Notes under the pieces: generated by a model
What the model saw: the letters and a program-made list of their open reading frames with translations, nothing else
Databases searched by the model: none
What the model was told of the DNA's origin: nothing
Position numbers and translations under genes: made by a program
Shown here: one piece after another, positions 15,486-34,293 of the stretch
Position numbering within the stretch: the stretch's first letter is position 1
Layout of the letters: every line of letters begins with the position of its first letter
IMG/VR virus record: IMGVR_UViG_3300017960_000020
Span: 1-51,518 of that record
Length of the DNA stretch: 51,518 nucleotides
From: a virus
Taxonomy: Duplodnaviria > Caudoviricetes
Reading direction: 5' to 3' (one strand)

Positions 15486-15749
15486 ATGTCTGAGAATCCC
15501 CGTCCCTCGCACCAAGGCTTCGCGCTCGTCCCCAAGTGGCGCACGACCATGGTGTACTCGACGGAGGTTCCCGGAGGGGAGGCAAGGGTGATCTTCGCGG
15601 AGTGCGACAAGACCGGGTCCTCCCTGGAGGGCTATCTGGAGCGCATCGGCGACGGCAAGTGGGATGGACAGCAGACGTTCATCGCCCCCGATGGTGCCAG
15701 GTTCAGCCACGAAGCTGACCTGATCGAGCACCTGCGTCGCCAACGATGA
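15486..15749 (+). CDS. Hypothetical protein
   Basis: Fills the terL-portal gap; ATGA overlap with the portal start. Confidence 0.6.
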   Translation: MSENPRPSHQGFALVPKWRTTMVYSTEVPGGEARVIFAECDKTGSSLEGYLERIGDGKWDGQQTFIAPDGARFSHEADLIEHLRRQR

Positions 15750-18535
15750 CCAGAGCCCTCAGCCGAACCAGCCAAGCGCGCACCCCGCGCCTCGCGGTCC
15801 CCACCCAGCGGGCCACCGCCCACGAGATCAAGAGCCTGCAGCAGTGGGCCAAGAGCAAGCCGTCGAAGCGGTACGCGATGGGCGCTGAGGGGGCGCTGGT
15901 CTCCCCCCTGCGGCAGATCCCGTGGATCTACGCGGCGATCCGCAAGCTGTGGAGTGCAGTGGGTGTGGCCCCGCTGAAGTTCCGGGTCGATCAGGACCCC
16001 GAGAGCAACGATCTAGCGCCGACGGATCCGCTGGTGCGCCTGTTCGAGCGGCCGTCGCCGACGATGAGCCGCAAGGAGTACCTGACCCAGGTGGTCCAGT
16101 TCACCCAGACCACGGGCGAGGCGTTCCACGTCTTCCACGACGCGGAGGGTAGGGTGATTCGGCCGCTGGACGACGGCCTGGACGCCCCGATCCCGATGCC
16201 GGCGCAGATCACGGTCCGCCAGGGCGGCGGGCGCCTGGGGCTGCAGTACGAGCGCGGGCTGCCGAAGTCCTGGCGCTTCTCGGACGAGGAGGGCTCCCAC
16301 GAGATCCCCTTCGCCGCGGGCCTGAACGTCCGAATGCCGTCCGAGGAGGACAGGTACCGGGGCCTGGCGCCGCTGGCGCCCGTGCTGGGCATCGGGGAGG
16401 CGATGTTCCTGGCCGAGCTGATGAACCGGAAGCAGGCGAGTCGGGGCGGGCTGTCGGGTCTGGCGATGGTGAACAAGACGCGGACCCGGGACGACGTCTA
16501 CGAGACCATGCAGGAGATGGCCGACCGGGTGCAGGACTCGCTCGCGGACGGCCGGATCCCGTACATCGAGGGCGAGATCGACTTCAAGAAGCTCGTCGAC
16601 TCGCACCGGGAGATGGCGTATTCGCGGCTGTCCGAGCTCGGGCGCAAGGATATCTCGGCCGTGTTCGGGGTGCCGGACGCCGTGCTGGGCATGGGGTCGA
16701 GCAACTACGCGACCTTCGCCGGCGAGATGCGGGGCATGTGGGAGACCACGGTCCGTGATCTGCAGTGCATGATCGAGGACGCGATCAACTGGCACTTGAT
16801 CCCGCGGCTGCGAGTCGGGAGCCGAGAGGTGCAGGCCTGGGCGTACTTCGACAACTCGAAGGTGGCGTGGCTCCAGCCGGACTACGAGGAGCTCGGGCGG
16901 CAGGCCCGGGGTTTGATGGCGGTCGGCGTCCCGCGGCGCGCGGCGCTCGATCGGGTGGGCCTAGTCGAGGTCGAGGACACGGAGTTCGACGAGATCCCGA
17001 TGTTGGAGGGAGGCCTGGAGTCCTTCGCCGAGGCGGTCCGCGGCTCTGGCGACGAGTCGGCGCCAGGGCTCTCGCCTGAGCAAGCCGCAGAGTTGCGCGC
17101 GATCCTGCTGGACGTGGGCAAGGGCGCGCTGTCGCCCGAGGCTGCCGTGCTGTTGATCGCGTCCGCGCTGCCGATCGAGGAGGCGGACGCCCGCAAGATG
17201 GTCGAGGCCATCGAGATCAAGGAGCCCCAGCCGGTGCCGGCGGCGCTACAGAACCAGCCGCCGCCCGTGTCGCCTGGCCCGCCCGAGGAGCCCGACCAGG
17301 AGCGCGCCGCGCGCCCGTTCGAGATCCGCCTGTCCCCCCGGCTAGAGACCCGGACCCGCATGGTCTCCCAGACCCCCCAAGCCGAGCGGGACGCGATCTA
17401 CGAGGAGTTGGAGGCTCGACGCGAGGAGGGCGACTCCAAGATCAGCCGCGCGGTCCGCCAAGTCTGGCGCGAGGCCAAAGAACGCCAGCTCGAGCACCTG
17501 CGCGCCTTCGCTGCCGGTGGTGGGTCGCGCCTCCCCCGCCGATCGCTCTACGGCGAGGACCGCGGGATCCGCCTGCTGGGGTCCGAGTTGCGCGACCTCG
17601 CCAAGGCGATCCGCGCCGACCGGGAGCAGGGCGAGCAGCTCGTGCCCATCCTCGACTGCTGCGGCCAGGAGATCGCCGCCTGGTGGGCGCCGGTCGAGGA
17701 ACGGCAGCGCAACTGGTTCGCCGACCACGGCAACCTGGCCAGCCTGCCCGGTGGCCTGCGCCGCTTGGCGGACGTGGCCGTGTTGCGCGAGGCGGACCCG
17801 AACCTGTCTGAAGCCGAGATCGAGGCCCTGTTGGTCCTGGGGAGCCCGGAGTGGGCCAAGGAGATCGCGGAGGCCTTGGAGCCGGTGTTCCTCGACGTGC
17901 TGGGCGACGCGGTCCGCCGGGCGAACTCGGACCTCTCGATCCCGTACTTGGCCGAGCCGGACGCCGTCTTGCTGCGTCTGGCGCGGGAGAACCGGATCAA
18001 GCTGGCCCGCGACATCCAGGGCACCCTGGCGACTCGCGTGCGCTCGGCGATGGTTCGGACCCTGAGTGAGGGGCCGGCGACCGTGACGGGGATCCGGGAG
18101 CGCGTGCGCGAGACGCTCGCCGAGCTCGAGGAGACCGTCGAGGACCAGTTCGGCAAGGCCAACGACCGGGCGCTGACCATCGCGCGGACCGAGACGGCCT
18201 ACCTGGACAACGCCGCAGAGTTCCGCACCAGCGAGCTAGGCCGCGACGCCGGCGAGTTCCTGACGCACGAGTGGCTCGCAGCCTCCCGCAACTCGCCTCC
18301 CACCGGCCGCACCCGCCCGACCCACGTTGAGGTGGATCGGACAGTCCAGTTCATCGGCCAGGCGTTCCGCGTCGGCAAACACCTCCTGCTCCACCCGGGC
18401 GACAAGCAGGTCGACGCCCCCGAGGAGACCATCAACTGCCGCTGTGCGCTGCGCCGCCGCCGGCTCCAGACCGACCTCGACGAGGGTCTGATCGACCAAG
18501 CCACCTTCGACCGCCTCCAGAACGGGGCCGCCTGA
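15746..18535 (+). CDS. Portal protein fused to a MuF/SPP1-gp7-like head morphogenesis domain
   Basis: HK97-portal motifs (WIYAAIR, YRGLAPL, ISAVFGVP..LG..SNYAT) in the N-half; C-terminal RALTIARTET, TRPTH and HPGD...EETINCRC. Confidence 0.9.
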   Translation: MTRALSRTSQARTPRLAVPTQRATAHEIKSLQQWAKSKPSKRYAMGAEGALVSPLRQIPWIYAAIRKLWSAVGVAPLKFRVDQDPESNDLAPTDPLVRLFERPSPTMSRKEYLTQVVQFTQTTGEAFHVFHDAEGRVIRPLDDGLDAPIPMPAQITVRQGGGRLGLQYERGLPKSWRFSDEEGSHEIPFAAGLNVRMPSEEDRYRGLAPLAPVLGIGEAMFLAELMNRKQASRGGLSGLAMVNKTRTRDDVYETMQEMADRVQDSLADGRIPYIEGEIDFKKLVDSHREMAYSRLSELGRKDISAVFGVPDAVLGMGSSNYATFAGEMRGMWETTVRDLQCMIEDAINWHLIPRLRVGSREVQAWAYFDNSKVAWLQPDYEELGRQARGLMAVGVPRRAALDRVGLVEVEDTEFDEIPMLEGGLESFAEAVRGSGDESAPGLSPEQAAELRAILLDVGKGALSPEAAVLLIASALPIEEADARKMVEAIEIKEPQPVPAALQNQPPPVSPGPPEEPDQERAARPFEIRLSPRLETRTRMVSQTPQAERDAIYEELEARREEGDSKISRAVRQVWREAKERQLEHLRAFAAGGGSRLPRRSLYGEDRGIRLLGSELRDLAKAIRADREQGEQLVPILDCCGQEIAAWWAPVEERQRNWFADHGNLASLPGGLRRLADVAVLREADPNLSEAEIEALLVLGSPEWAKEIAEALEPVFLDVLGDAVRRANSDLSIPYLAEPDAVLLRLARENRIKLARDIQGTLATRVRSAMVRTLSEGPATVTGIRERVRETLAELEETVEDQFGKANDRALTIARTETAYLDNAAEFRTSELGRDAGEFLTHEWLAASRNSPPTGRTRPTHVEVDRTVQFIGQAFRVGKHLLLHPGDKQVDAPEETINCRCALRRRRLQTDLDEGLIDQATFDRLQNGAA

Positions 18536-18539: not shown

Positions 18540-19907
18540 ATGACTGACCTCGACCTCAACCTCCTCGACGCTGTCCGCCTGGGCGTGGCCAGCCCTCACG
18601 AGATGCGCCAGGCCGCGGACGTTGTCCGCACCTTCAAGTCCCAGGGCAACATGCTCCTGCGGGGCTCGGCAAGCCCGAAGCCGGTCATCGAGCGCGCCGC
18701 GATCAACCGCGAGGCCCGCTCGATCACCTACGCCGGGTCCGTCGAGATCGTCGACCGGATGGGCGACCTGATCCTCCAGCGCGGCTGGGAGACCGACAAC
18801 TGGAGCGAGCACGGCGGAGTCTTCCTGTGGATCCACGACCACGGCGACATCATTGGCCAGGGCATCCAGACCGGCCTGGGTCAGGCGACCTACCGCGGCG
18901 CCCAGTACCCCGCGCAGCTCTTCGAGATCGGCTACCTGTCCGAGGACCTGAACCCCGCCTCCGAGGTCGTCTGGCGCCTCGCGTCGGGCCAGGGCACCCC
19001 CACCGGCCGCCCGCTACTCAAGGGCGTCTCCGTGGGCTTCCGCGGGCTGGACATGCGGGCCTTCGACTCCGACGAGCGCGAGAAGTACGGTCTGCCGGAC
19101 GACCACTGGGGGCTCGTGTTCGAGCGCCAGGACCTGCTCGAGCTGTCCCAGGCGCCGGTCCCGGCGAACCAGGGCGCGTTCACCCTCAGCGACACAAAGG
19201 CGGACCGCAAGTTCGCCGCGCAGGTGGACGAGGCGTTGGGGCACATGGTCAGCGAAGGCCAGATCAGCGCGAGCCTCGAGCGCCTCTTCCGCGAGCGCTA
19301 CCAGGTGAGCCCCGGCGAGGCCGCGAAGAAGGCCGCCGAGCGCGCCAAGTCGTTCACCGATCTAGGGTCGTGGGAGTGGCCGAAGGCTGCGGCGCAAGCC
19401 GTTACCGAGGAGCGCGGGGCTCAGATTCCCGAAAAGGCTACCGACGACACGGAAAAGTTCGGCGAAGCGGACGACGTTACGCCCGCAACAGAGAGGGCGG
19501 AGAGTGTTGGGCAGCGCGGGAAAGGTGGTGAGATCGAAACGCTTGACGGGCTCTTGGACGTGGTCCGCGAGTTGACGCCCGATGGGGTCTCTTCGCTTCG
19601 CCGTCTTAGCGTAACGCTCGAACGCGCGCGGATGATGGTGGATCGCGCGCTGGATGACTTCGAGGCCGCGCAACGCGCTTGCAGCGGTGGATCGAATAGC
19701 GACAGCATGGTTGGCGAACGTGCTACCAACACGGACGTGGCCGAGCTGTTGCAACGAGTCGAGCGACTCGAGCAGCGAGGTCAAACCGAACTGGAAGCCA
19801 CGCCTGCAGTCGAGAGAGGGGCGGAGCAGGCGATCGACTTCACCGATCTACTCGACCGCTACCGACCCAATGCCGCCGGAAACCAACACGCCGGAGCAGC
19901 ACGATGA
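18540..19907 (+). CDS. HK97-type prohead protease with C-terminal extension
   Basis: VDRMGDLI..RGW, FLWIHDH, LKGVSVGF, LLELSQAPVPAN. Confidence 0.88.
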   Translation: MTDLDLNLLDAVRLGVASPHEMRQAADVVRTFKSQGNMLLRGSASPKPVIERAAINREARSITYAGSVEIVDRMGDLILQRGWETDNWSEHGGVFLWIHDHGDIIGQGIQTGLGQATYRGAQYPAQLFEIGYLSEDLNPASEVVWRLASGQGTPTGRPLLKGVSVGFRGLDMRAFDSDEREKYGLPDDHWGLVFERQDLLELSQAPVPANQGAFTLSDTKADRKFAAQVDEALGHMVSEGQISASLERLFRERYQVSPGEAAKKAAERAKSFTDLGSWEWPKAAAQAVTEERGAQIPEKATDDTEKFGEADDVTPATERAESVGQRGKGGEIETLDGLLDVVRELTPDGVSSLRRLSVTLERARMMVDRALDDFEAAQRACSGGSNSDSMVGERATNTDVAELLQRVERLEQRGQTELEATPAVERGAEQAIDFTDLLDRYRPNAAGNQHAGAAR

Positions 19908-21234
19908 GCTGCTGAAGGGCATCGACGGGCTGCTCTCCAAGCGAGACGCAACCCTCGTGTCCGATCTCGACACCAAGCTGGCCCAGGCCAAGACGGACGC
20001 TCGCCAAGAGGTCGCGCGCCTGGCCGAAGAGCACAAGGCGAGCCTGACCGACCTGGAGAAGATGCTCCAGGCGTCCTCGCTGGACCTGACCGACGAGCAG
20101 GCCGCCAAGGTCAAGGAGATCGTCGCGGAGCGCATCCAGGCGATCCGCACCCAGGCCAAGGAGTCCTCGGGCTCCGACAAGGAGGAGACCGCCGACAAGG
20201 CGCTCGACTTCAACTTCGCCCGAGCCGCTGAAGGCTCGATGGTCGACTGGAAGGGCACCGCCAAGCAACTGCCCGAGTACAAGGCGACCATGGAGGCCAC
20301 CGAGAAGGCCGTCCAAGCTGATGTCGACGTGCAGGGCGGCTTCGCGGTCCCGGCGGCCTACATGGCCAACCGCCTGATCCCGGCCCTGGAGGCGCGCACC
20401 GTTTCGCTTCAGCTGGGCGCCACGGTGATCGACTCCCTGGACGGCGCTCCGGGCGAGATCCCGCGCATCACCAACGTCCCCGACGCGGAGTGGGTCGGCG
20501 AGGTCCAGGAGTCCAGCGACACGGACGTCAAGTTCGGGATGCTGCGCCTGAACCCGCACGGCCTGGTGAGCTACATCCCGGTCTCGCGGCGCTTTCTGCG
20601 TATGTCGGCCCTGTCCAGCGGCCAGAGCCTGATCGAGCAGCACATGGCGCGCGCGCTGTCGCGCAAGGCCGACCTGGCCGCCCTGAAGGGTGACGGCGCC
20701 AGCGGTCAGCCCCGCGGCATGTACAACACCACCGGCATCGGCGAGGTGGACTGGAACTCGGCGGACTTCGCCGGCGCCGACCAGAACGTCAGCGACCTGG
20801 CTGACCAGATGATCGGCAAGCTCGAGGACAACGACGCCTACGGCGGCCGCCTGGGCTGGGCCATGTCTCCGGCGGTGCGTCGCAAGCTGCGAACCACCAA
20901 GGACGCTGACGGCCGTCCGCTGTTCTTCTCCACGATGGGGATGCGCGACGCCGCGGGCGGCAACCGCACCGTCGGCGCCATCGCCGGGGAGTTCTACGAC
21001 TTCCCCTACGCCACCACCACGCAGCTGGCTGGCGGCGACCCGGGCGACCTGATCCTCGCCGACTGGGAGACCCTGATCTTCGGCTACTTCGAGCAGCTCG
21101 TCTTCGACGTCTCGGAACACGTCCTCTTCAAGAAGCGCCAGCTCGCCCTGCGCGCCTACATGGAGGTGGACATGGGTGTCCAGCACCCCGAGGCCATCGC
21201 CATCGCCAACAACCTCGACGCCACGGGGGTCTGA
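19870..21234 (+). CDS. Major capsid protein (HK97 fold)
   Basis: Coiled-coil N-terminal delta domain, GGFAVP, AEWVGE, GDGASGQPRG, KDADGRPLF; ATG 19870. Confidence 0.95.
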   Translation: MPPETNTPEQHDELLKGIDGLLSKRDATLVSDLDTKLAQAKTDARQEVARLAEEHKASLTDLEKMLQASSLDLTDEQAAKVKEIVAERIQAIRTQAKESSGSDKEETADKALDFNFARAAEGSMVDWKGTAKQLPEYKATMEATEKAVQADVDVQGGFAVPAAYMANRLIPALEARTVSLQLGATVIDSLDGAPGEIPRITNVPDAEWVGEVQESSDTDVKFGMLRLNPHGLVSYIPVSRRFLRMSALSSGQSLIEQHMARALSRKADLAALKGDGASGQPRGMYNTTGIGEVDWNSADFAGADQNVSDLADQMIGKLEDNDAYGGRLGWAMSPAVRRKLRTTKDADGRPLFFSTMGMRDAAGGNRTVGAIAGEFYDFPYATTTQLAGGDPGDLILADWETLIFGYFEQLVFDVSEHVLFKKRQLALRAYMEVDMGVQHPEAIAIANNLDATGV

Positions 21235-22658: not shown

Positions 22659-23270
22659 GTGGCGTCTCTGATCACCTGGGACTTCTACCGGACGTGGGTC
22701 GGCACTGCCGATCTGCCGTCCGGTGCGTCCGACGTGCAGGAGACGTTCGACCTCCTGAACCCCCAGGTGGGCTCGATGATCGAGAACTACCTGGGCCGCC
22801 GGGTGATCCAGGGCACCGTCACCGAGCAGAAGCGGACCCAGCCGGACCGCGAGATCTACCACCTCCGCAACTTCCCGGTGCAGTCGGTCACGTCCGTCGA
22901 GTACGACCCCGAGGCGCGCTTCGAGTCGGGCTCCGATTACACCGTGGCGACCGACGCCTACGCGGTGGATCTGACCACCGGGCGGCTCTGGCTGGACATC
23001 ATGGTCGACCGGACGCCGTTCGGCCTGCGGGTGGTCTACGAGGGCGGGATGGTCGCGGACGTGGCGACCCTCGAGACCCCGTCTAACGAGTACCACCCGA
23101 TCGCGGTGGCCGCGGCCCAGCAGATCAACCACCTGTACGACCGCCGGGACTACCAGGGCGCGGAGAGCGTCAGCATGGGCCGAGCGAACGCCAGCTACGG
23201 CGGGGAGGCTCAGCTGCTCGAGGTGGTCCAGCAGACCCTGGCGCCCTTCAGGGCAGCGAGGGCGGGGTGA
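22659..23270 (+). CDS. Head-tail adaptor (gp6/gp15-like)
   Basis: IENYLGRR, LRNFPVQSVTSVEY, RVVYEGG, QQTLAPFR; position after the head genes. Confidence 0.8.
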   Translation: MASLITWDFYRTWVGTADLPSGASDVQETFDLLNPQVGSMIENYLGRRVIQGTVTEQKRTQPDREIYHLRNFPVQSVTSVEYDPEARFESGSDYTVATDAYAVDLTTGRLWLDIMVDRTPFGLRVVYEGGMVADVATLETPSNEYHPIAVAAAQQINHLYDRRDYQGAESVSMGRANASYGGEAQLLEVVQQTLAPFRAARAG

Positions 23271-23929
23271 CGCAGCGGTTCGAGTTCGTCGTCCGGGATG
23301 GTCCGCGGACCGCGCAGGAGATCTTTGCGCGGGGCCGGGCGCTGCGCGGCAGTGTGGAGCGTGCGTTCCGGGCGATCGGCGCCGAGTTCGTGGGACGTGC
23401 ACAGGGCCGCATCGACGGCGAGTGGAATCCGGCTCTCAACAAGCGCCGGACGACCCTGGTCAACCGGTCGGGAGCCCTGCGCCGGCGAGGACTTCGGGTG
23501 CAGACCGTCGGAGGCCAGCGCCTGCGGGACGTGGCGCTCCGCGTCTACATCACGCTCCCCTACGGCGTCACCCAGGAGTTCGGCGGCACCATCCGGCCGA
23601 AGCGGGCCAAGTACCTGACGATCCCGACGCCGGCCGCGCTGGACCCCTCCGGCATCCTCAAGAAGACCGCGCGCGAGTACCGCGCTGAAGGCGGGACATT
23701 CGTGTTTAACACGCCCAAGCGCCGCGAGAAGGGGCTGGGAGGGCTGATCGCGCGTCGGGTCGGCAAGAAGGGTAAGTTGGAGGTGCTGTTCGTCCTGGCG
23801 AAGCAGGTCAACGTCCCGGCCCGCTGGGGTCTGCGGAAAGATTGGCGCTCGTCGGACATGCTTAAGGTCCGCGGCCAGGAGATGACCTCGGCCATCCGAC
23901 GCGTGCTCAACGCCCAGGGGGCCGCCTGA
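23267..23929 (+). CDS. Tail completion / virion morphogenesis protein
   Basis: RSGALRR and YGVTQEFGGTIRPKRAKYLTIP; basic protein in the neck position. Confidence 0.7.
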   Translation: MTQRFEFVVRDGPRTAQEIFARGRALRGSVERAFRAIGAEFVGRAQGRIDGEWNPALNKRRTTLVNRSGALRRRGLRVQTVGGQRLRDVALRVYITLPYGVTQEFGGTIRPKRAKYLTIPTPAALDPSGILKKTAREYRAEGGTFVFNTPKRREKGLGGLIARRVGKKGKLEVLFVLAKQVNVPARWGLRKDWRSSDMLKVRGQEMTSAIRRVLNAQGAA

Positions 23930-24282
23930 TGGTCGCCTGGATCGAGACTGCCGGCACCCTGCGAGTCGGCTCCATGGGCTACCCCGTTCGCCGCGTGCGG
24001 ACGCTGGACGGCATCTCCGAGCCCGCCACCTCGGGGCTCGCGGTCGGCAAAACCACCGAGCAGATCCCGCGCGAGTCCTGGGAGGTCGAGTTGGAGCTTC
24101 GCTCCGGCGCTGAACTGTCCGTGCTCCGCGGTGACGTACAGACCGCCCGAGGCGGCGCGCTCCCCCTGTTCTGGACGGACGACGAGGGCCAGATCCGCGA
24201 GGTCTACCTGACCGCGCCGGTGGAGTCTCTGATCCGCCGAGGGCGCATCGTGTCGCGCCTGGCGCTTGAGGAGGTCGTCTAG
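23929..24282 (+). CDS. Small tail protein, lambda gpM/Dit-like
   Basis: ESWEVEL...ARGGALPLFWTD pattern and ~117 aa size. Confidence 0.45.
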   Translation: MVAWIETAGTLRVGSMGYPVRRVRTLDGISEPATSGLAVGKTTEQIPRESWEVELELRSGAELSVLRGDVQTARGGALPLFWTDDEGQIREVYLTAPVESLIRRGRIVSRLALEEVV

Positions 24283-24284
24283 CC

Positions 24285-25772
24285 ATGGTCCTCATCTCCC
24301 CGACCCGCCAGGGTTTCTATGACCCCGGAGGCGACACCAGCGAGCGGTCGGCCTACTACGCCTTCTATCGGACCGACATCACCTTCGACGCCCCCGGGCG
24401 CCCGTGGGTGCTGAACCTGGAGGGTGGTGCCTGGGCGCCGGACTCCGGGCTGCCGTTCGACACCTTCGACACGGACGGCCGGCCGATCCTGGCGAAGCTC
24501 TACTACCGGGGCTTCGGGATCCTCTCGATCGGGCGCACGGTGACGGACGTGGCCTTGGACGGCAACGGGGCCTTCGATCCGACAACTTGGACGACGCCCC
24601 CCACTGGAGGCGTGCGGCTGGACTCGACGCCGGCGAACCTGGGCAAGCGGAGCTCGGAGAAGGACGTGGTGAACTTCATCCAGTTCCTGCGCTTCAACGG
24701 CATCGGCGACCTGGACCGCAGCGACGCGGCCAACGGGATCTGGGGCCGCTCGATGGGCTCCCAGGACGGCAGCTTCGTGGGGATCGGACCGGACCGCCGG
24801 ACGGGCTCGGGGTCGGACCGCTTCAACACGAACACCCGCCTGGGCTGGATGATCAACCAGTCCACGATCGCCACCTGGAAGGGCTACGTCGACGCCCAGA
24901 ACACCGGCGGCCACCTGACCGACGGCGCGGGAGGGAATGCCAACACCGTCGGCGAAGCCAAGGCCGCCCCCGGTGGCGCCGAGACGATCCGGCAGGCCAG
25001 CTCGCTGTGGTACGCCTTCGCCAACGAGGGCACCCGGCTACGGAACGCCACGATGCCGGTCTGGATCCAGTCCGGCGCGGAGGCGCTCCAGTACGCGGGC
25101 CCCTACGACTTCGACAGCTACGACGGAGTCGTCTCCAACACGCACCCCCCCGAGAACGTCGAGGCGCTGCGAGAGGCGTTCCTGGCGCTGGACACGGAGT
25201 TCGGCTCGACCTTCCAGGCTGAGAACTCCCGCTTCGTCCGCGACTACAAGGGCACCGACGAGGCCCTCGGCGAGGAGCAGTACCAGTGGGTCTTGCAGGT
25301 CTCCGGGGTCGGCGAGCTTCCGACGCGCGAGGAGGCGACCATCCAGGCTCTGGTCTCGCAGCTCGAGGGGATCACGACCGACGGCGGCTTCCGCACCGAG
25401 GTCGCTGAGGTCCGGCGGGTCTCCGAGCTCGCGACCGAGATCCGCACGCCTGGCATCGCCGTCATCGAGGTCGGCTCGAGCTACCAGGACGGCGCCGAGA
25501 ACAACGCCAACCGGATCACCATGCAGGTGGTTCTGGAGCTAACTGTCGGCAAGTACGCCGACCTGGAGAAGTCCGTCTCCAACTTCGTGGGTGACGTGCG
25601 GAAGGCGATCTACGCCGACCGGACGCTGGGAGGGAAGGCCCTGGACGTGAGGTTCGGCAGCTCTGATCGCTGGCTGAACTCTGAGCGCGGCCCGAGGGGC
25701 GGCGCGAATCTGACCCTGTCCATCGAGATCTTCGATTCGGCGGACGACCCCTACCTCGAGCCCTACTGCTGA
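24285..25772 (+). CDS. Alpha/beta-hydrolase (esterase) fused to a C-terminal tail terminator-like domain
   Basis: PWVLNLEGGAW oxyanion motif and GIWGRSMGS nucleophile elbow. The C-terminal ~150 aa (TREEATIQALVSQLEGITTDGGFRT...AIYADRTLGGKALD) resembles gpU-like terminators. Directly before the tail tube gene. Confidence 0.75.
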   Translation: MVLISPTRQGFYDPGGDTSERSAYYAFYRTDITFDAPGRPWVLNLEGGAWAPDSGLPFDTFDTDGRPILAKLYYRGFGILSIGRTVTDVALDGNGAFDPTTWTTPPTGGVRLDSTPANLGKRSSEKDVVNFIQFLRFNGIGDLDRSDAANGIWGRSMGSQDGSFVGIGPDRRTGSGSDRFNTNTRLGWMINQSTIATWKGYVDAQNTGGHLTDGAGGNANTVGEAKAAPGGAETIRQASSLWYAFANEGTRLRNATMPVWIQSGAEALQYAGPYDFDSYDGVVSNTHPPENVEALREAFLALDTEFGSTFQAENSRFVRDYKGTDEALGEEQYQWVLQVSGVGELPTREEATIQALVSQLEGITTDGGFRTEVAEVRRVSELATEIRTPGIAVIEVGSSYQDGAENNANRITMQVVLELTVGKYADLEKSVSNFVGDVRKAIYADRTLGGKALDVRFGSSDRWLNSERGPRGGANLTLSIEIFDSADDPYLEPYC

Positions 25773-25776
25773 ACCC

Positions 25777-27213
25777 ATGGCACTGCTCTCCAGAAACCGA
25801 CAACTACTGTTCGCGCCGGAGCCGGTCTTCGGCACGGCGGCCTCGCTGATCTCGGGGAGCTCCCTGGCGGCTGGGGCGAAAGCGCTTCGCATCCTCAACC
25901 CCGAGGTCCAGTTCGACTTCGAGAAGATCGAGGACGAGGCGGCCTCCCCCAGCGCGGGTCGCCTGCCGTACCGAGCCGGCGTCCGCCAGGGCACCGTCAC
26001 CTTCGGGATCGAGCTGTCGGGGCCCAAGTCCGGCACGCTGACCGAGGCACCCGCCTGGGCCGAGCTACTCGAGGCCTGCGGGATGCGCGCGGTGGCCGCC
26101 AAGAAGGTGACCATCGACGCCTTCGACACGGGCACCGTGTTCAAGCAGGGGCGGACCTTCGCGGCTGACGGCTCCAACGGAGTCGGTCGGGTCTTGAAGA
26201 CGCTCTACAGCGCCCAGGGAGACGACACGCTGATCTACGAGGATCTGGGCACCGACGTCGACTCCGGCGACACCACGCTCACTTTGAGCGATCCGGGGGG
26301 CGAGTTCGACGGCAACATTGTCGACATCACGAGTCAGACCCCGGCGAACGCGGGGTTCGCGTTCGTGCCCACCACTCTGCCGGGCTACACGCTGACCCTC
26401 AGCGTCGGCGTCTCCCAGGACTTCAACGAGGGTGACATCGTCACCGGCGGCACGTCGGGGGCTGTGGGCCGTGTGGCCCAGACCAGCCTGTCGGGCGCGA
26501 CCAAGCTGGTGGTGACCTTCCTGGGCGCCGTCCAGGCCTTCTCCGCGGGCGAGACGATCACTCGCGTCGGCGGAGGCACCGCCACGATGGGCACGCAGAC
26601 GGCGACCTACGGCCAGTCGCTGACGATCGGCCTGGTCGAGAGCGAGCGCTTCAAGGTGCTCCGGGGCTGCCGCGGGACGTGCCAGTTCGATCTGACCAAC
26701 GCCCGTGCGCCGCGAATCAACTTCACCTTCCGCGGGGTCTACGACTCGGTCACCGACCAAGGCTCGCTCGCGGTCAGCCCCGACGGCGGCGCAACCCCGC
26801 CGCGCTTCGTGGGCGCCACGATCTGGGCGGGAACCGACGGCGCGTTCTGCCCGCAATTCCAGCAGCTCACCGTCGACCTCAACGCCAACCCCGCGATGAT
26901 CGCGGATCCGAAGTCGAGCGAGGGCATCCTCGGCGCCTACGCGGCCCGACGCGACATCAGCGGCCAGATCAACCCGCTCGCGCGCCTGGAGCAGAGCTTC
27001 GCGACCTACGCCAAGGCCGCGGCCGCGACCGACTTCCCGCTGCAAGTCGCCTGGGGCACCGAGGGCTCGGGCAACGCCTTCGCCTTCCAAGCGGACCGGA
27101 CGACCTTCCGCAGCGCTAACGCAGGCGACCGAGACGGCCTGATGACCGACGAGTTGCCGCTCGACTTCTTCGAGTACGCAGGAAACGACGAGTTCGTATT
27201 CCTGACCCTGTGA
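25777..27213 (+). CDS. Major tail tube protein with inserted domains
   Basis: LLFAPEPVFGT N-terminus, LLEACGM, LRGCRGT..F..RINFTFRG, GDRDGL; Thr/Gly-rich; precedes the chaperone and tape measure genes. Confidence 0.85.
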   Translation: MALLSRNRQLLFAPEPVFGTAASLISGSSLAAGAKALRILNPEVQFDFEKIEDEAASPSAGRLPYRAGVRQGTVTFGIELSGPKSGTLTEAPAWAELLEACGMRAVAAKKVTIDAFDTGTVFKQGRTFAADGSNGVGRVLKTLYSAQGDDTLIYEDLGTDVDSGDTTLTLSDPGGEFDGNIVDITSQTPANAGFAFVPTTLPGYTLTLSVGVSQDFNEGDIVTGGTSGAVGRVAQTSLSGATKLVVTFLGAVQAFSAGETITRVGGGTATMGTQTATYGQSLTIGLVESERFKVLRGCRGTCQFDLTNARAPRINFTFRGVYDSVTDQGSLAVSPDGGATPPRFVGATIWAGTDGAFCPQFQQLTVDLNANPAMIADPKSSEGILGAYAARRDISGQINPLARLEQSFATYAKAAAATDFPLQVAWGTEGSGNAFAFQADRTTFRSANAGDRDGLMTDELPLDFFEYAGNDEFVFLTL

Positions 27214-27277: not shown

Positions 27278-27688
27278 ATGCGAGCCATCCAGCGAAGCGA
27301 GCGCGTCCTAATCCACCCGGACGACGCCGACCTCCCCGCCGACCAGCAGACCCGGTTCTACCTCGCTCCTCCGACGCCTAAGCTCCAGGCCCTGGTGGCC
27401 GACGCCGCGAAGATCGAGCGCACCTCCGAGGGCGTGGTCATCCACCATCGCTCAGCTCAGGCGGGCCTCGAGTACCTCCTAGGCTGCCTGGTCAAGGTGG
27501 AGAACCTGCTCGACATGGCCGGCCAGCCAATCGAGGTGCCGCGCGCTCAGCACCCCCTCCTTGCCGAGGGCTGCCTGCGGGTCACCGAGGCGGGCCTGGC
27601 GTCGGTTCCCGAGAACGTCGTCGGCTGGCTGATCCAGAAGGTCCGCGAGGAAACCGAAGTCAAGGAGGCCGAGCGGGGGGAGTCCTAG
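27278..27688 (+). CDS. Tail assembly chaperone (gpG-like)
   Basis: Between tail tube and tape measure genes; ends in a G-run slippery site. Confidence 0.75.
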   Translation: MRAIQRSERVLIHPDDADLPADQQTRFYLAPPTPKLQALVADAAKIERTSEGVVIHHRSAQAGLEYLLGCLVKVENLLDMAGQPIEVPRAQHPLLAEGCLRVTEAGLASVPENVVGWLIQKVREETEVKEAERGES

Positions 27689-28134
27689 TCGCAGCCCACA
27701 TCCACGGGAACCCGGAGTTGGAGCCCGACTGCTTGGTCTGCACGGACCCGGCAGCTGCGGATCAGCGAAGGGCCTGGGGTTGCGACAGCGATGCTCCCTG
27801 CGAGGTCTTCGTCACCACCTGTCCACGATGCGACGGCCGACGCTATTTGACCCCCGAGCAGCCCTGCGAGCTGTGCACGCCCGAGGAGGGCGGCGAGCCT
27901 ACGGGGGAGGTCCCGTCGTACAGGTGCCCCACCGCGAGGCTCTCCCCGCTCGGAGCCTGCTTGGCGCGCGAGTTCTCGGAGGCGTACGACAGCGGCCGGC
28001 TTCCGAACGGCGGCGGCTTCATGGATCAGCCGCTGCGCTGGGACCTGCTGTTCCGCATCTACAGCGGGGAGCGGGGGCGGTTGCAACGCGCTCTGATGGA
28101 GAGGGCCAAGGAGAAGCGCGGTGGTAGTCGCTGA
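27679..28134 (+). CDS. Tail assembly chaperone -1 frameshift extension (gpT-like), Cys-rich
   Basis: The -1 frame is open from the six-G run at 27675-80 into ORF 27718..28134; C-terminal GRLPNGGGFMDQP. Confidence 0.65.
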   Translation, partial: GVLVAAHIHGNPELEPDCLVCTDPAAADQRRAWGCDSDAPCEVFVTTCPRCDGRRYLTPEQPCELCTPEEGGEPTGEVPSYRCPTARLSPLGACLAREFSEAYDSGRLPNGGGFMDQPLRWDLLFRIYSGERGRLQRALMERAKEKRGGSR

Positions 28135-30574
28135 CGAACGCTTTCTGATCGAGCTGAAAGCCACCGGCAACGCCGAGGAGGCCTTCGAGAACCTGGGCAA
28201 GGAGGTTCGGGACACGGCTCGCCGGATCGACACCGAGAGCCGCAAGGCTGGCCGGGACTACGACCGCTTCACCGACAAGGCGGTCCGGGACTCGAATCGG
28301 CTCGAGCGATCCGTCAAGGGCGTGGGGTTCGCCCTGACCGGCCTGGGGGTTGCTGCCGCCGGGCTTGGCGCGGCCTACGCAGTCGTCAGCCAAGCGATCG
28401 ACCTCTCCGCCCTGGCCTCCGAGGCCGAGGAGACCCAGAGCAAGTTCGACACCCTGTTCGACGGGCTCGAGGAGCGCGCCAACGGCCTGGCTCTGGGCCT
28501 CGCCGAGAGCCTGGGCCGCGCGCCGACCGACATCCAAGACGCCATCGCGGGCTTCCAGGCGCTACTGACGCCGATGGGGCTGGTGAACGAGGAGGGGTTG
28601 GAGATCTCGTCCACGCTGACCCGCCTGGGCCTGGACCTCAGCTCGTTCTTCAACACGGCCGAGGACGATGCGTTCTTGGCCCTGCGGTCCGCGTTGATCG
28701 GTGAGACTGAGCCACTGCGCCGGTACGGCGTGAACCTGCTGGACGTGCGGGTCCGCCAGGAGGCGGTGCGCTTGGGGTTGGCTGAGACCAGCGCCGCGGC
28801 CGACGACCAAGCGCGCGTGCTGGCCCGCCTGTCGCTGATCCTGGGGGACACGGACAAAGCCCAGGGCGACCTAATCCGAACCCAGGACAGCTTCGCGAAC
28901 AGCTTGCGGGGGCTGCGGAGCCAGCTGCGGGGGGCGCAGATCGAGGCGGGTCAGCGGATCAACGAGGCGGTGCTGCAGGGCATCGAGGACGCGGGCGGCG
29001 TGGAGCGCATCACCCAGTTGTTCGAGGTGGGATTCGAGACCATCGCTGATCTGACGAGGGTCGGAATCTCTGGGCTGGTCGAGTTTGCGTCGACTGGCCT
29101 TGAGGTTGTGGACCGGCTTGGTGGACCAGAAGGGGTCGCCCGGGTCGTGGCAGGGACCGCAGACCTTGCTATCGCCCAGATCCGGTTCTTTGGAGCTGAA
29201 GCTCGCGAGCAGATCGAGCCACTTGTTCAGTTCCTAGATGACGCGGGGGTGCTTGCGGAGACAGCCTTCGGGCGTAGCCCAGGCGAGTTGATCAAGGATC
29301 AATTCAGTCTCGAAGGCCCGTCTCTTCAGGAGCAAGTCGAGCAAGCAAGGGAGCTTCAGGAGCGAATCGCTGCCCAAGAAGACGTCCTTCGTGGCCTGGC
29401 TGTCCGGCAAGCCAACCTTTTCCGAGAGAACGGTGGCCAGGTCAGCCAGGCTGCCACGGCGCTTCAGCTGGACTACCGCCAGGCATTTCAAGGCCTCGAG
29501 AACGCTCAACGGCTGTTCGATGGACTGCCCGATGTCGTTCTAGATCTAGTTGCCGCTCAAGATGGCCTAGCGCAGTCCCTCGCGCCGCTTGGAGAGCAAG
29601 CAGCAGAGGGGATCGTGGAAGGCGCGGAGAACGCTCTTGCCGCCACAGACTTCTCGCGCATCGCCGAGGGTCTAGGCTCAGGCCTGTTCGGCCGACAGTC
29701 GGAAGTGATCGCGGGGCAGGGCGGTGAACGCGCGGGCCAGGCCTACGCCGAAGGCATCGCCCGGTACCTCAACGCGATCGGGCCCGAGGTGTTCGCGGCG
29801 GGGCAGAACGCCAACTTCCTGGAGGAGCAGCTGGCGCTGCAACTCGAGATCGCCGAGCTGACCAACGACCAGCAGTTCATCTTGGACGCTGAGATCCAAG
29901 GGCGCCTGGATCGGGTCGACGCGATGCTGCACGAGAACGCGATCCTTGACGATCAGGCCGAGAAGCTCCGTGAGTTGATCCAGCAGTACGGATCGCTTCG
30001 TAACGCGCAGGAGGGAGTCGGCGGAGAGTTGACGCAGTTCGGCGACAGCTTGGACCGAATCTCCACCAACGCCCTTGCCGGCTTCATCCAAGGCGGCGAG
30101 CAGGCGACTCGGGCTGCCGAGCAGTTCCAGCGGGCCTTACAGAACCTCCTCGCCGAGCGAGCGGCTGAGTTCATCTTCGACCTGATCCTCCCAGGCGGGT
30201 TCGGAAGCATCTTTGGCTTCGCAGGCGGCGGCGTCGTCCAAGGCCCCTCGACCGCACTCGGTGCCCTCCCCCTGAACTTCTACGCCGGCGGCGGCATCGT
30301 GGACTCCCCCCAGCTATTCGTGGCTGGCGAGGGGCAGTCCGCGGAGGCCATCGTGCCCATGCCGAACGGTGCGGTCCCGGTGCAGTTCACCAACGGCGGC
30401 GGGGGCGGCGGAGGCAACACGGTCGTCGTGAACCTCAACGTCTCGGCGCTCGACGGTCAGGACGCCGCGCGGGTGCTCCAGGGCCAACTCGGCACCATCC
30501 AGGCGGCCGTCATCGAGGGCCTGCAAGGCGGCAACCGCGGCCTCATCGAGTCCGTCCGGGGGGTCAACGCATGA
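28121..30574 (+). CDS. Tape measure protein
   Basis: 817 aa, helical and Ala/Leu/Gln-rich; DLSSFFN, LIGETEPLRRYGV, FAGGG, VAGEGQSAEAIVPM. Confidence 0.92.
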   Translation: MVVADERFLIELKATGNAEEAFENLGKEVRDTARRIDTESRKAGRDYDRFTDKAVRDSNRLERSVKGVGFALTGLGVAAAGLGAAYAVVSQAIDLSALASEAEETQSKFDTLFDGLEERANGLALGLAESLGRAPTDIQDAIAGFQALLTPMGLVNEEGLEISSTLTRLGLDLSSFFNTAEDDAFLALRSALIGETEPLRRYGVNLLDVRVRQEAVRLGLAETSAAADDQARVLARLSLILGDTDKAQGDLIRTQDSFANSLRGLRSQLRGAQIEAGQRINEAVLQGIEDAGGVERITQLFEVGFETIADLTRVGISGLVEFASTGLEVVDRLGGPEGVARVVAGTADLAIAQIRFFGAEAREQIEPLVQFLDDAGVLAETAFGRSPGELIKDQFSLEGPSLQEQVEQARELQERIAAQEDVLRGLAVRQANLFRENGGQVSQAATALQLDYRQAFQGLENAQRLFDGLPDVVLDLVAAQDGLAQSLAPLGEQAAEGIVEGAENALAATDFSRIAEGLGSGLFGRQSEVIAGQGGERAGQAYAEGIARYLNAIGPEVFAAGQNANFLEEQLALQLEIAELTNDQQFILDAEIQGRLDRVDAMLHENAILDDQAEKLRELIQQYGSLRNAQEGVGGELTQFGDSLDRISTNALAGFIQGGEQATRAAEQFQRALQNLLAERAAEFIFDLILPGGFGSIFGFAGGGVVQGPSTALGALPLNFYAGGGIVDSPQLFVAGEGQSAEAIVPMPNGAVPVQFTNGGGGGGGNTVVVNLNVSALDGQDAARVLQGQLGTIQAAVIEGLQGGNRGLIESVRGVNA

Positions 30575-33500
30575 GCCTCCCCCAGGACCGCACCTTCGAC
30601 GACCCGACCAACGCGGCCGTCTGGGGCCCCTACCAGCAGCTCTACCCCGGCGCCCGTTTCGGCACCGGTGCGGACGACGCGCGCCTCCCCCGAGAGGGTC
30701 GGATCTGCAAGCTGCCCGACGGGATCGGCGGCAAGGGCGTGGTCTTCGACAGCCGGGACAGCTCGGCGACCGTGGCGGCCTGCTTCCCCCGTCTGGATGC
30801 TTCCCTGTCGGACGCCCAGGTCTCCGCGTGGATGCGGTTCCAGCGGATCCAGGGCGAGGCGAGCTCCAAGCAGTTCAACCGTTGCGGCGTGTTCGCGCGC
30901 GGGGATGCGGCGGGGATCGTGGGCGCGGAGTCGCCGGACCCCTACGTGGCGCTCACCAACGTCGACGCCTACGCCTTCGCTCTGGAGCCCCAGAGCCAGC
31001 CGGGGACGTTCAAGTGGAAGCTGGAGCGGTGGGACGCCGCCGGCAGCGTGGTCGACCTGGCCGAGACCGCGGTGATGCGGCAGTACCAGCAGACGCTCCA
31101 CAAGCCGATGGGGATGCGCCTGCAATTCTCGAACGACACCGGCAGCGCGGTCACGATCAAGGCCCAGGTGAAGGACACGGCGTACCTGGAGCCCGTCGAG
31201 GCCCAGGACGGCGGAGGTCCTGGCAACCCCGGCAACAGCCCGCTCGGGGTCAACAGCGCGTTCCTCAAGGACTACTCGACGCTGGCGGCCCTGTACCGGG
31301 CCAACCTGATGCACGGGGCGCGCGAGTGGGTCACACAGGACATTGGCGTCAACGACCTGGTCGAGAAGGGGCACCCCAAGGACCTGAAGGCCAACGGGCT
31401 GCCGAACTCGATCCCGACGGTGGCGACCACGCTAGGGACGGTGCTGTTCCGGGACGTGCTGACCGCCGGGGTGGACTCGACCCCGCTCCCGACCTACCGG
31501 GCCGGCCGCTACGTGGTCGAGTGGAAGGGCGGCCTGGTCGAACTGGACACTTCTGGCACGTACGACGTGAGCCAGACGTTCGGGGTTTCGACGCTGCCCG
31601 ACGGCGGGCGACGACTCGAATTCGACGTGCCGACGCCGTCGAGTGCCGGCATCTACCTGCGGATCACGACCGTCGACGCGGGGGGCATGGACTACCTACG
31701 TGTCTTCTACAAGGACGACGAGCCGACCCTGGCGACGGAGCCCTGGGACACGGACGCGCTCAAGGACTTCACCGAGTACTTCAGCTGCTTCCGGTTCATG
31801 GACTTCCTGGAGGCCAACCGGAACGAGCAGGAGACTGAGGCGGATCTGCTGCCGGACGACTACCTGTTCTGGTCGGGCGACAACGGAATGCCCTTCTTCT
31901 GGCAGATCGAGTTGGCCAACAAGATGCAGGTCAACCCGTGGTTCAACCTGCCGGTGAAGCTCAACTCGGCGGGGCGCCAAGCGGTGCTCACCCAGATCCG
32001 TGACGGGGTGGACCCGGGGCTCGAGATCTACCTGGAGCGCGGCAACGAGCAGTGGCTGGGCCAGCACTTCGCGGTCCCAGTCTCGGGCCAGCCGGACGCC
32101 TACTTCCCCGGCACCAGCCTGGTCCCCGGGCCTTTCTCGTTCGAGTTCGCCAACGACGTCAGCCCGCACCCCACCGAGGCGGGCGCGGTGCAGCTGGGCC
32201 CCGGCGCGCTGGATCCGAACCCCTACACGGCGGCCTACATCGGCATGGGCATCCTGGCCCAGCAGATGTTCGACGACGTCAACGTGGTCTTCCAGGGGCA
32301 GCTGGACCGCGTGGTCCGGGTCGCCGGCTCGCAGTTCGCCAACGCCTTCGTCTCGGAGAAGGTGCTGGAGAACGCGCCGGACGCCGACGCCCTGGCGGTG
32401 GCTTTCTACGTCCCCGGGACCCCCGGGAGCACGAACTACGCGCCGTCGATCGCGGACATCTTCACCACGCTGCGGTCGGAGTTCCCCACCGTCCGCTCGC
32501 GGATTCAGGCCCAGAAGGCGGAGGCGGACTCCAAGGGGGTGCGCCTGGTCGCCTACGAGTGGGGCCAGCAGCTGATCTGCTCGCCGGCCGACCTCGTCAA
32601 GATGATGCAGGTCCAGGCTGACCCGCTGATGGAGGGCTTCATCGAGGACCTCTACCAGATTTGGCTGGAGGAGAACGGGACCGAGCTCGCGGTCTTCTTC
32701 CACAGCCACCAGAAGGGCACGACCGACGGCCAGTACGGCTTTCGCCGCTACCCCGGGCAGCCGCAGTCCGAGTGCCCCAAGGCGCGCGCGCTGGCGAGTA
32801 TCGCCGAGGACCAGTCCAACGTGGGCTCCTCCGAGGCGGTGGCTCTGGCGGTCGACGCCGAGGCCTCGATCTCCAAGGACGTGGGCTTCAAGGGTCAGAA
32901 GCTCGTCACCCCCAAGGTCTGGAAGACCGTCATGGAGATCACGGTCTCCGGCGCGGACTACGTCGCCGGCGGGGACGCCTTCGGGATCTTCGGCGACGTG
33001 GCGCAGACCCAGGCGATCACTGGCGGGCTGGACAAGATCTGGGCCGCGGCGTGCTCGCGGCTGTTGGTCGAGCGCAACAACGATCCGTCCACCATCTACT
33101 TCGACGACCGCTTCGGGGGCCGCGTGGACTCCCTGTGCGGCCGGCGGACGCTGGACGGCCTGGGGAGCTGCTTCGACTACGGGAGCGAGTTCTCCGGCGA
33201 CCTGGCGGGCTACGGGCTGGCCCTCGCGTCGAACCCTTACCAGCTGGGCTACTCGAGCCTCGAGGGCGGCTACGTCACGGCGAGCTCGAACGCTCGAGGC
33301 TGGGAGATCTACCAGCGCTTGGCGGACAGCCCGAAGTCTCAGCACCGGCTGGCCTCGGTCAAGATCACCGGGGGCTCGAGCGGCGCGGCCGTGGGGCTCG
33401 TGCAGCGCGTATCCGTGGATACCGCGGCGGCCGGCGCCGAAGTCCCGATCAGCGGCTACCAGTTCCTGGTGGTCTACAACGGCACCACGGCGGAGGCCCA

Positions 33501-34293
33501 GCTGCGGCGGGTCAACGCCAACGGGGACGAGTTCACCCTGGCCACGGCGACGGGTCTGGGGCTCTCGATCGGGACCGCGTTCACGATGGAGCTCGACGTA
33601 TTCGACGCCTTCTCCACCGGCGAGGACGGCCCCGTGGCCCTGATAGCCAAGATCGACGGGTCCGAGCCCACCTGGGTCATCGAGGCCGCCGTGGCCAACC
33701 AAGTGCAGGCCTACACCGACGGCAACGGAGACGACGGGATCCTGGACTTCGGCAGCTTCCGCCTGACCTCCGGGCCTCGAGAGGGGCTGTTCGCGCGCCC
33801 GGTGCCCGGCTCCCCCAGCACGGTGGCGCTGCTGTCCTACACCCAGGGCGTGCTCCAGACCGGCGGAGGCCCGCCCCCGTCCGAGTCCGTGCCCTCGATC
33901 GCCTGGGAGGACGCCACCGCGGGCGCATCGGGGACGCTGACCGTCCCGGTTTCCTTCGAGGTCAAGTACAGCGACGGCCTGCCGCTGCTCCAGGCCCGGA
34001 TGACCAGCGGGCGCCGGAGGGCCAGCGCCATCCAGCCCGTGGCGCCCCAGCGCTTCGCGTTCGCCGGCGTCGCCAGCCAGTCCGAGAAGGATGCGCTGGA
34101 GACCTTCTTCGACGAGCACGGTACGCAGGTCCCGTTCTCCTGGGATCCGACGGAGATCGCCGAGGGCTTTGAGACCGGCACCTACCGGCTCGTCCGGGGC
34201 TCCTGGCGGTTCGAGCGGCTCCGCAGCCGCGGCGCTGAGGCCTTCTACCGTGTGGAGTTCTCGCTGATGGAGGCGCTGACCGATGGCGCTTGA
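30571..34293 (+). CDS. Large tail protein: lectin-like and glycoside-hydrolase-like domains plus a C-terminal gpM/Dit-like domain
   Basis: FRFMDF, LANKMQVNPWFNLP, IYLERGNEQW and LVAYEWGQ (TIM-barrel glycosidase-like NE/YE pair). C-terminal LETFFDEHGTQVPFSWDP. Occupies the gpM position. Confidence 0.7.
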   Translation: MSLPQDRTFDDPTNAAVWGPYQQLYPGARFGTGADDARLPREGRICKLPDGIGGKGVVFDSRDSSATVAACFPRLDASLSDAQVSAWMRFQRIQGEASSKQFNRCGVFARGDAAGIVGAESPDPYVALTNVDAYAFALEPQSQPGTFKWKLERWDAAGSVVDLAETAVMRQYQQTLHKPMGMRLQFSNDTGSAVTIKAQVKDTAYLEPVEAQDGGGPGNPGNSPLGVNSAFLKDYSTLAALYRANLMHGAREWVTQDIGVNDLVEKGHPKDLKANGLPNSIPTVATTLGTVLFRDVLTAGVDSTPLPTYRAGRYVVEWKGGLVELDTSGTYDVSQTFGVSTLPDGGRRLEFDVPTPSSAGIYLRITTVDAGGMDYLRVFYKDDEPTLATEPWDTDALKDFTEYFSCFRFMDFLEANRNEQETEADLLPDDYLFWSGDNGMPFFWQIELANKMQVNPWFNLPVKLNSAGRQAVLTQIRDGVDPGLEIYLERGNEQWLGQHFAVPVSGQPDAYFPGTSLVPGPFSFEFANDVSPHPTEAGAVQLGPGALDPNPYTAAYIGMGILAQQMFDDVNVVFQGQLDRVVRVAGSQFANAFVSEKVLENAPDADALAVAFYVPGTPGSTNYAPSIADIFTTLRSEFPTVRSRIQAQKAEADSKGVRLVAYEWGQQLICSPADLVKMMQVQADPLMEGFIEDLYQIWLEENGTELAVFFHSHQKGTTDGQYGFRRYPGQPQSECPKARALASIAEDQSNVGSSEAVALAVDAEASISKDVGFKGQKLVTPKVWKTVMEITVSGADYVAGGDAFGIFGDVAQTQAITGGLDKIWAAACSRLLVERNNDPSTIYFDDRFGGRVDSLCGRRTLDGLGSCFDYGSEFSGDLAGYGLALASNPYQLGYSSLEGGYVTASSNARGWEIYQRLADSPKSQHRLASVKITGGSSGAAVGLVQRVSVDTAAAGAEVPISGYQFLVVYNGTTAEAQLRRVNANGDEFTLATATGLGLSIGTAFTMELDVFDAFSTGEDGPVALIAKIDGSEPTWVIEAAVANQVQAYTDGNGDDGILDFGSFRLTSGPREGLFARPVPGSPSTVALLSYTQGVLQTGGGPPPSESVPSIAWEDATAGASGTLTVPVSFEVKYSDGLPLLQARMTSGRRRASAIQPVAPQRFAFAGVASQSEKDALETFFDEHGTQVPFSWDPTEIAEGFETGTYRLVRGSWRFERLRSRGAEAFYRVEFSLMEALTDGA

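Follow-up and report, generated by a model that had tools for sequence, protein, structure and literature searches.

In a 51,518-nucleotide viral contig from an uncultured marine phage, IMG/VR record IMGVR_UViG_3300017960_000020, which was analyzed at its full length and is called the window here, the gene at positions 24285 to 25772 of the plus strand encodes a single 495-residue protein with two domains. Residues 1 to 345 are predicted to adopt an esterase-type alpha/beta-hydrolase fold, and residues 346 to 495 are predicted to have the gpU/p142 fold of siphovirus tail terminators. The open reading frame (ORF) is a real, continuous gene within the tail module, and it sits just before the tail tube gene, where a terminator gene is normally found. 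Both folds are known, as is the idea of a virion-borne esterase, and they appear here in a new architecture and location. An earlier note, made from the DNA letters alone, had proposed an HSL/BD-FAE-like hydrolase pattern in the first ~345 residues and a gpU-type terminator in the last ~150, in an arrangement that it did not recognize as described. Structural and family data now support both assignments, and in the literature we found, judged by titles, abstracts, and some passages, neither a fusion of terminator and hydrolase nor an esterase collar at the phage neck is described.

The window is a complete-looking siphovirus-type contig (CheckV, 100%; G+C content, ~0.69) with every assigned gene on the plus strand, to which all gene and motif coordinates below refer. 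The fusion ORF, whose coordinates include the stop codon, is tightly packed among its neighbors, starting 2 nt past the upstream stop and ending 4 nt before the next gene. By direct reading of the sequence, a ribosome-binding site (GAGGAGG, 24268 to 24274) stands 10 nt upstream of its ATG. The boundary between the domains at about position 25320, residue 346, agrees with the helices of the structural model, in which the last N-domain helix spans residues 325 to 340 and the first C-domain helix spans residues 348 to 361, and it also fits the start and end points of stand-alone relatives of each domain.

Continuity of the gene could be judged from contigs of four public sequencing runs, compared over positions 24000 to 26100. 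One run (X6) contributed a piece covering 24905 to 25899 that spans the domain junction with 0 differences, and another (X7) contained a variant, ~96% identical, whose overlapping pieces cover the entire fusion ORF with substitutions only. Because the other runs' contigs read through the junction, with no insertion or deletion anywhere in the compared region and no stop between the domains, the frame of the ORF is not an assembly artifact, and the two domains are uninterrupted, as the earlier note had read them. Third codon positions account for 22 of the 25 listed X7 substitutions within the ORF; among the rest, one turns the ATG into GTG and two fall at first or second codon positions. The stretch is present in public runs labeled as sediment, seawater, and marine plankton metagenomes (9 studies), some of which may be where the window itself came from, and no RNA data sets were listed among the runs that contain it. 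An internal start that would yield a free terminator domain was considered and rejected: the sole in-frame candidate near the junction is a TTG at 25293, which follows a GAGGAG by 15 nt, with no ATG or GTG there.

Structural results for both domains come from an AlphaFold model built on an alignment of 87 related sequences, which reached a predicted local distance difference test score (pLDDT) of 95 and a predicted template modeling score (pTM) of 0.87 and contains two well-packed domains joined by a short linker; a single-sequence attempt gave a pLDDT of 34. Foldseek matched the terminator domain (25320 to 25769) to T5 p142 (9ilv_A) with a probability of 1.00 (E value, 5.6e-7; template modeling [TM] score by target, 0.65; root mean square deviation [rmsd], 3.4 Å; 156 columns) and to lambda gpU (3fzb_C) and the phage Chi terminator (8vhx_C), each with a TM score by target of 0.70. 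Further matches to DT57C (8hqo_a), P74-26 (9oab_Fa), and a cyanophage terminator complete a TM range of 0.64 to 0.70, and the best matches are thus bona fide terminators of six different phages. A family profile also matched the sequence of the Chi terminator among PDB sequences (E value, 1.6e-3). Finally, among stand-alone relatives scanned, 17 of 20 matched tail terminator PHROGs (4204, 5078, or 3907) and the other three only phrog_5185, while the fusions P0002, P0004, P0006, P0017, P0021, and P0036 matched terminator PHROGs as well. Matches to PF23818 in four relatives all stayed below the cutoff (at most 22.7 versus 27 bits). In BFVD, the 50 best matches to the domain are all proteins of 135 to 255 residues, none with two domains, and the 36 of these 50 that carry names comprise 1 tail terminator, 6 tail completion proteins, 1 DUF3168 protein, and 28 uncharacterized proteins.

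Compared with known siphovirus terminators, such as lambda gpU (3FZB), T5 p142 (9ILV, 8BCU, and 8BCP), and those of Chi (8VHX), DT57C (8HQO), and P74-26 (9OAB), the C domain shares the fold, the size of ~150 residues, and a gene position just ahead of the tube gene. The chains that it matched are single-domain proteins of 129 to 167 residues, except for the 240-residue gp7 of A-1(L), whereas the fusion protein adds a 345-residue enzyme-fold domain in front, and it can be connected by sequence to curated terminator families only by way of intermediates.

The N-terminal domain (24285 to 25319) was assigned from the model together with structural and profile matches. Its mostly parallel central beta-sheet with flanking helices aligned to 994 of 1,000 re-aligned chains with Z scores of at least 8 in VIA-align, where the best match was 6xyc (Z, 23.6; rmsd, 2.8 Å; 249 residues aligned over model residues 1 to 342). 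Close behind came 6tkx (Z, 23.5), the glycoside hydrolase 43-carbohydrate esterase (GH43-CE) protein 6mly (23.4), and the lipase 6nkf (23.3), with tannases (~21 to 22) and S9 peptidases (~20) lower on the list. Foldseek likewise placed 6xyc (E value, 3.9e-10) and 6tkx (6.6e-10) at the top of its PDB matches, followed by 6nkf, 6mly, and Est2 (5ao9), and listed Antigen 85 mycolyltransferases further down (E value, ~5e-6). In sequence, the nearest relatives are HSL-type esterases: an N-domain family profile built from 29 members and searched against PDB sequences matched Esterase B (E value, 2.9e-7) and EST2 (6.6e-7), with the family's GRSAG falling on the GDSAG nucleophile motif and its GGG on the HGGGW of both enzymes. 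Since these alignments place the nucleophile and oxyanion motifs on those of solved HSL-type esterases, the motifs are more than chance resemblances; the alignments reach only the nucleophile region and do not place the acid or the histidine.

The structures 6TKX and 6XYC represent the founding BD-FAE, characterized as a bifunctional feruloyl and acetyl-xylan esterase whose Ser128-Asp237-His269 triad lies in a shallow furrow open to solvent (PMC8165983). The N domain has in common with BD-FAE and with HSL-type carboxylesterases (EST2, 1QZ3 and 1EVQ; Esterase B, 4N5H) the alpha/beta-hydrolase core, the GxSxG elbow, and the GG(G) oxyanion loop, but it is only 12 to 16% identical to them, is longer by ~55 residues (345 versus ~290), and comes from a family with no conserved acid. 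The spacing from Ser to His is 131 residues, compared with 141 in BD-FAE, and the N domain is part of a predicted virion protein, whereas BD-FAE is a free bacterial enzyme or one encoded in a polysaccharide utilization locus. Weak matches to BD-FAE (PF20434) or Abhydrolase_3 (PF07859) appeared in 5 of 57 relatives scanned, and P0037 alone passed a Pfam gathering cutoff, at 28.2 bits (cutoffs, 26.8 bits for PF20434 and 25 bits for PF07859). BD-FAE is the nearest structural neighbor of the N domain, which is not a member of that family by the curated Pfam model.

The motifs that the earlier note had picked out by eye, GGAW (residues 47 to 50), D127..FIQFLR, GRSMG (residues 154 to 158), and SNTHP (residues 284 to 288), all lie where it had placed them, and several make sense as parts of an active site. 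GGAW (24423 to 24434) is a putative oxyanion-hole motif by profile alignment, the counterpart of the HSL-type HGGG, and its G47 and G48 are unchanged in all six closest relatives. GRSMG (24744 to 24758; Ser156, 24750 to 24752), placed by both model and profile alignment, sits between the strand at 151 to 155 and the helix at 157 to 166 in the model, in the manner of a classical nucleophile elbow. His287 (25143 to 25145), the candidate that the earlier note had seen in SNTHP and part of a longer SNTHPPE, lies in a loop directly before the helix at 289 to 305 and is the putative catalytic histidine. For the acid, Glu267 (25083 to 25085) is a weakly supported candidate by position, in a loop after the strand at 259 to 263, as expected from canonical topology.

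The case for a catalytic histidine at position 287 comes from the family. When 37 related N domains were aligned to the family hidden Markov model (HMM), the serine and the histidine were both present in 28 and both absent in 8, with losses that are not all independent events, as P0024, P0037, P0041, and P0077 form one group. One further domain (P0007) has the serine with an alignment gap at the histidine, bringing the serine to 29 of 37, and none has the histidine without the serine. The protein from the window retains both. Because the two residues are kept or lost together, Ser156 and His287 are supported as a functional pair. His210, by comparison, is invariant in a 13-sequence alignment of the N domain yet persists in 4 of the 8 domains that have lost the serine, which makes its link to the nucleophile looser.

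The architecture recurs well beyond the window. Searched exhaustively with phmmer, 1.84 billion representatives clustered at 50% identity yielded 87 proteins at E values of ≤1e-3, the fusion protein included, and their architectures were called with domain HMMs built from the same 87-protein alignment, a circular procedure with very strong E values. The N domain followed by the C domain was found in 22 of the 87, again counting the protein from the window; these are metagenomic representatives, and they answer the earlier note's suggestion to look for the same fusion elsewhere. Four of them (P0003, P0004, P0005, and P0008) are full-length relatives of 505 to 530 residues with the same two-domain layout, 32 to 38% identity, and E values from 1.9e-79 to 4.6e-38, and 17 more distant fusions share the order. 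Fifteen proteins carry the N domain without the C domain, 10 of them 321 to 359 residues long; 46 consist of the C domain alone, at under 200 residues; and 4 have two C domains in tandem.

These tandem terminators (P0061 and P0085, 361 to 369 residues; P0070, 957 residues; P0071, 569 residues) have first and second copies that group separately in a tree, and a duplicated terminator could complete a ring of six domains with three chains, like duplicated tube proteins. P0002 (863 residues) carries two hydrolase domains ahead of its terminator domain, the first with neither Ser nor His and the second with both. In P0011 (669 residues), a hydrolase module with Ser and His retained is joined to a phrog_778 tail assembly protein (E value, 5e-11), so the module is not restricted to a single virion protein; P0011 also has a Phage_BR0599 match at an E value of 5.5e-4, below the Pfam cutoff.

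In a C-domain tree, made by a quick method and with 39 of 73 inner branches open, fused domains tend to group with fused ones and stand-alone domains with stand-alone ones (9 label changes versus 19.3 in shuffles; none of 500 shuffles reached so low a number). The terminator domain of the window's protein groups with stand-alone terminators at 93% in the Shimodaira-Hasegawa-like approximate likelihood ratio test (SH-aLRT), below the 95% bar. At least 2 changes between the fused and stand-alone states are required by the branches with good support, in a tree whose poor resolution does not allow fusion events to be counted. By tblastn, four queries (the fusion protein, two distant fusions, and one stand-alone terminator relative) found no match in 50,697 GenBank phage records, and word-index protein searches with the fusion protein found nothing beyond the protein itself.

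Lambda gpU and T5 p142 assemble into hexameric rings that close off the tail tube and connect it with the head. Judging from fold, family, and gene position, the C domain may do the same, in which case six N domains would ring the outside of the neck just under the head. We consider it probable, with moderate confidence, that these six domains are active esterases forming a neck collar that acts on acylated polysaccharide. In such a collar, each acyl-esterase site would comprise Ser156, His287, and the GGAW oxyanion loop, and the likely substrates would be O-acyl groups, acetyl or feruloyl-like, on capsule, exopolysaccharide, or marine gel matrix, a proposal made solely because the nearest structures are carbohydrate esterases.

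Tail length follows a rule of ~0.15 nm per residue of tape measure, by which the 817-residue tape measure protein of the window would give a tail of ~120 nm and hold the collar far from the cell surface during adsorption. Action on an extended matrix would therefore be more plausible than action at the receptor. Such a collar could release the particle from unproductive binding, or allow it to pass through acylated polymer by binding and release, in the manner of a receptor-destroying enzyme. More tentatively, and with rather less confidence than in the collar itself, we suggest that environmental siphoviruses of a widespread, undescribed lineage have a terminator ring that doubles as an enzymatic collar of six catalytically competent BD-FAE-like esterases with a matrix-clearing or receptor-destroying role, and that the site has decayed to a lectin-like binder in several sublineages, with P0002 carrying a dead and a live copy in tandem.

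Several observations weigh against an active esterase collar on a true terminator. Fold similarity does not fix substrate. The fusion protein has no Pfam match at an E value of ≤0.1 and no NCBIfam match at ≤0.01, and its sole PHROG match is to phrog_5185, a family of unknown function (E value, 4e-4; residues 354 to 446). No conserved catalytic acid was found across the related domains: an acidic residue lies within one column of Glu267 in only ~12 of the 28 domains with Ser and His, by our reading of the alignment, and no other column of the family alignment holds a conserved acid. Scans of viral, genome, and metagenome contigs for loci encoding the relatives found none, leaving the synteny of the fusion visible in this window only. 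In addition, 7 of the 21 fusion proteins that could be scored carry only domains lacking both Ser and His, and catalysis is therefore not always what keeps the fusion together.

That last count is also an argument for the main alternative, in which the architecture and its place on the virion are the same but the hydrolase fold serves as a noncatalytic binder of glycans or other ligands, or as a structural collar, a pseudoenzyme or lectin that aids reversible attachment or stabilizes the neck. All 8 domains with neither Ser nor His sit in terminator fusions, while proteins with no terminator domain keep both residues in 14 of 14 cases aligned at both positions (P0007 has its gap at the His). 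The lack of a conserved acid in the family fits a binder as well, and a precedent exists in noncatalytic modules resembling those of carbohydrate esterases at the neck of 936-group lactococcal phages (PMC6669499). The protein encoded in the window nonetheless retains the GxSxG serine, His287, the oxyanion glycines, and other residues invariant in the family, and across the family Ser and His are lost only jointly, as expected of a catalytic pair wherever it is kept. We regard a binder or structural collar as unlikely for this protein, though it is the alternative we take most seriously.

Less probable again is an N domain that works as a serine hydrolase on another kind of substrate, for example a lipid, a peptide, or an ester of the cell envelope, either at the host envelope or in lysis and release. 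The high-scoring structural neighbors do include the lipase 6nkf, tannases, S9 peptidases, and the Antigen 85 mycolyltransferases. The top matches, however, are the carbohydrate esterases 6xyc, 6tkx, and 6mly, with which 6nkf is tied, lying within 1 Z unit; the sequence-profile matches are carboxylesterases, and a neck position on a tail of ~120 nm would be poorly suited to reaching the envelope. A shade more doubtful is the idea that the C domain is terminator-like in fold only, making the protein an accessory decoration of the neck or tube while another, unrecognized protein caps the tube. Terminators, tube proteins, and other tail proteins have related folds, the C domain meets no curated terminator model, and the adjacent proteins of 117 and 220 residues are poorly assigned, all of which would suit such a decoration. 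Against it stand the gene's position directly upstream of the tube gene, best folds that are bona fide terminators, and a search of the window in six frames with the C-domain HMM, in which no second terminator-type ORF was found (best other E value, 2.9). Hardly credible, finally, is a joining of separate esterase and terminator genes by assembly or sequencing error. Both domains do exist as stand-alone proteins elsewhere, but contigs from other runs span the junction with neither indel nor stop, the four full-length relatives and 17 more distant fusions repeat the same order, and the short linker and packing in the model suit a single chain.

Placed beside known systems, the esterase collar that we favor would be unusual in its architecture and position. 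Virion-borne depolymerases and esterases occur at tail tips, and neck decorations occur as separate accessory proteins. The Schitoviridae phages Moo19 and B2 reportedly bear esterase domains on tailspikes or fibers, at the distal, receptor-binding end; action of a virion-borne enzyme on host surface polysaccharide would be common to both cases, with the distal end as the site there and the neck as the proposed site here.

Carbohydrate-directed modules at the neck of a siphovirus have their closest precedent in the neck passage structure (NPS) of 936-group lactococcal siphophages; in two NPS groups, the protein terminates in a domain resembling a carbohydrate-binding module (CBM) of carbohydrate esterases (PMC6669499). 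Like the proposed arrangement, NPS is a collar that brings carbohydrate-directed modules to the head-tail junction. It differs in being a separate accessory protein with a BppU-like N terminus and coiled-coil fibers, with binding modules from another fold family (2WAA by HHpred), and in not being a terminator.

In the fusion described here, a core assembly protein predicted to cap the tube itself bears the enzyme-fold domain, and at least 22 representatives at 50% identity have the same fusion. If the collar is what it appears to be, the neck, by way of the terminator itself, joins the places where phages mount enzymes. An active domain would amount to a second enzymatic site on siphovirus particles, with consequences for movement through capsule, biofilm, and marine gel. 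Fusions that have lost Ser and His together provide, alongside those that retain the pair, a naturally occurring series leading from enzyme to binder, and the N domain is a compact, divergent esterase-type scaffold that could be of use in enzyme discovery.

The genes around the fusion follow the order terminase, portal, major capsid, adaptor, Neck1-like protein, 117-residue protein, fusion gene, tube, two small ORFs, tape measure, and a lambda-like tip with a J-like protein. Upstream lie the head-tail adaptor (22659 to 23270; phrog_442; E value, 1.8e-15), a 220-residue Neck1 or tail completion-like protein (23267 to 23929; phrog_26; E value, 5e-4), and a small tail or neck protein of 117 residues (23929 to 24282) with an ESM Atlas lead to clusters resembling Phage_min_tail or DUF2460 and no match to the C-domain HMM. 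Directly downstream, the 478-residue tail tube (major tail) protein (25777 to 27213) has no Pfam or PHROG match and was identified through the ESM Atlas, where it has a feature score of 0.98 to PF18906 (Phage_tube_2) clusters and TM scores of 0.76 and 0.94 to a 383-residue tail tube cluster. Two small ORFs (27278 to 27688 and 27718 to 28134) hold the position of tail assembly chaperones, a role suggested by position only, and are followed by the tape measure gene (28121 to 30574; PHROGs 1535 and 1292; E values, 2.6e-13 and 5.7e-11).

Other features of the window lie outside this cluster. The 929-residue portal protein (15746 to 18535) looks like a fusion of portal and head morphogenesis protein, as its C-terminal ~200 residues match head morphogenesis PHROGs (such as phrog_2468 and phrog_3517). 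The ORFs at 18540 to 19907 and 19654 to 21234 both match the major head protein family phrog_617, over profile parts 15 to 237 and 204 to 623, and overlap by ~250 nt in different frames; a scaffold/capsid gene that is split or frameshifted is one possibility, and a true start of the capsid further downstream is another. A 1,240-residue ORF (30571 to 34293), located after the tape measure gene and before that of the minor tail protein, has no Pfam or PHROG match. Right after the J-like gene, a 227-residue protein (40166 to 40849) carries an Mtd_N domain, the N terminus of a major tropism determinant (E value, 5e-10). A diversity-generating retroelement near it was considered and dropped, with no template and variable repeat pair in 38000 to 51518 and no reverse transcriptase among the ORFs scanned. 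An HNH endonuclease (1588 to 2067) and a YqaJ/RecT recombination pair (4425 to 6169) are encoded near the start of the window, and a SocA/Panacea antitoxin-like domain (E value, 5.3e-20) is encoded at 45369 to 46004. A cluster of direct repeats at 49081 to 49229, with the common core CCGGACACGGTGACC, lies within the ORF at 48606 to 49976 and may represent iterons or operator sites.

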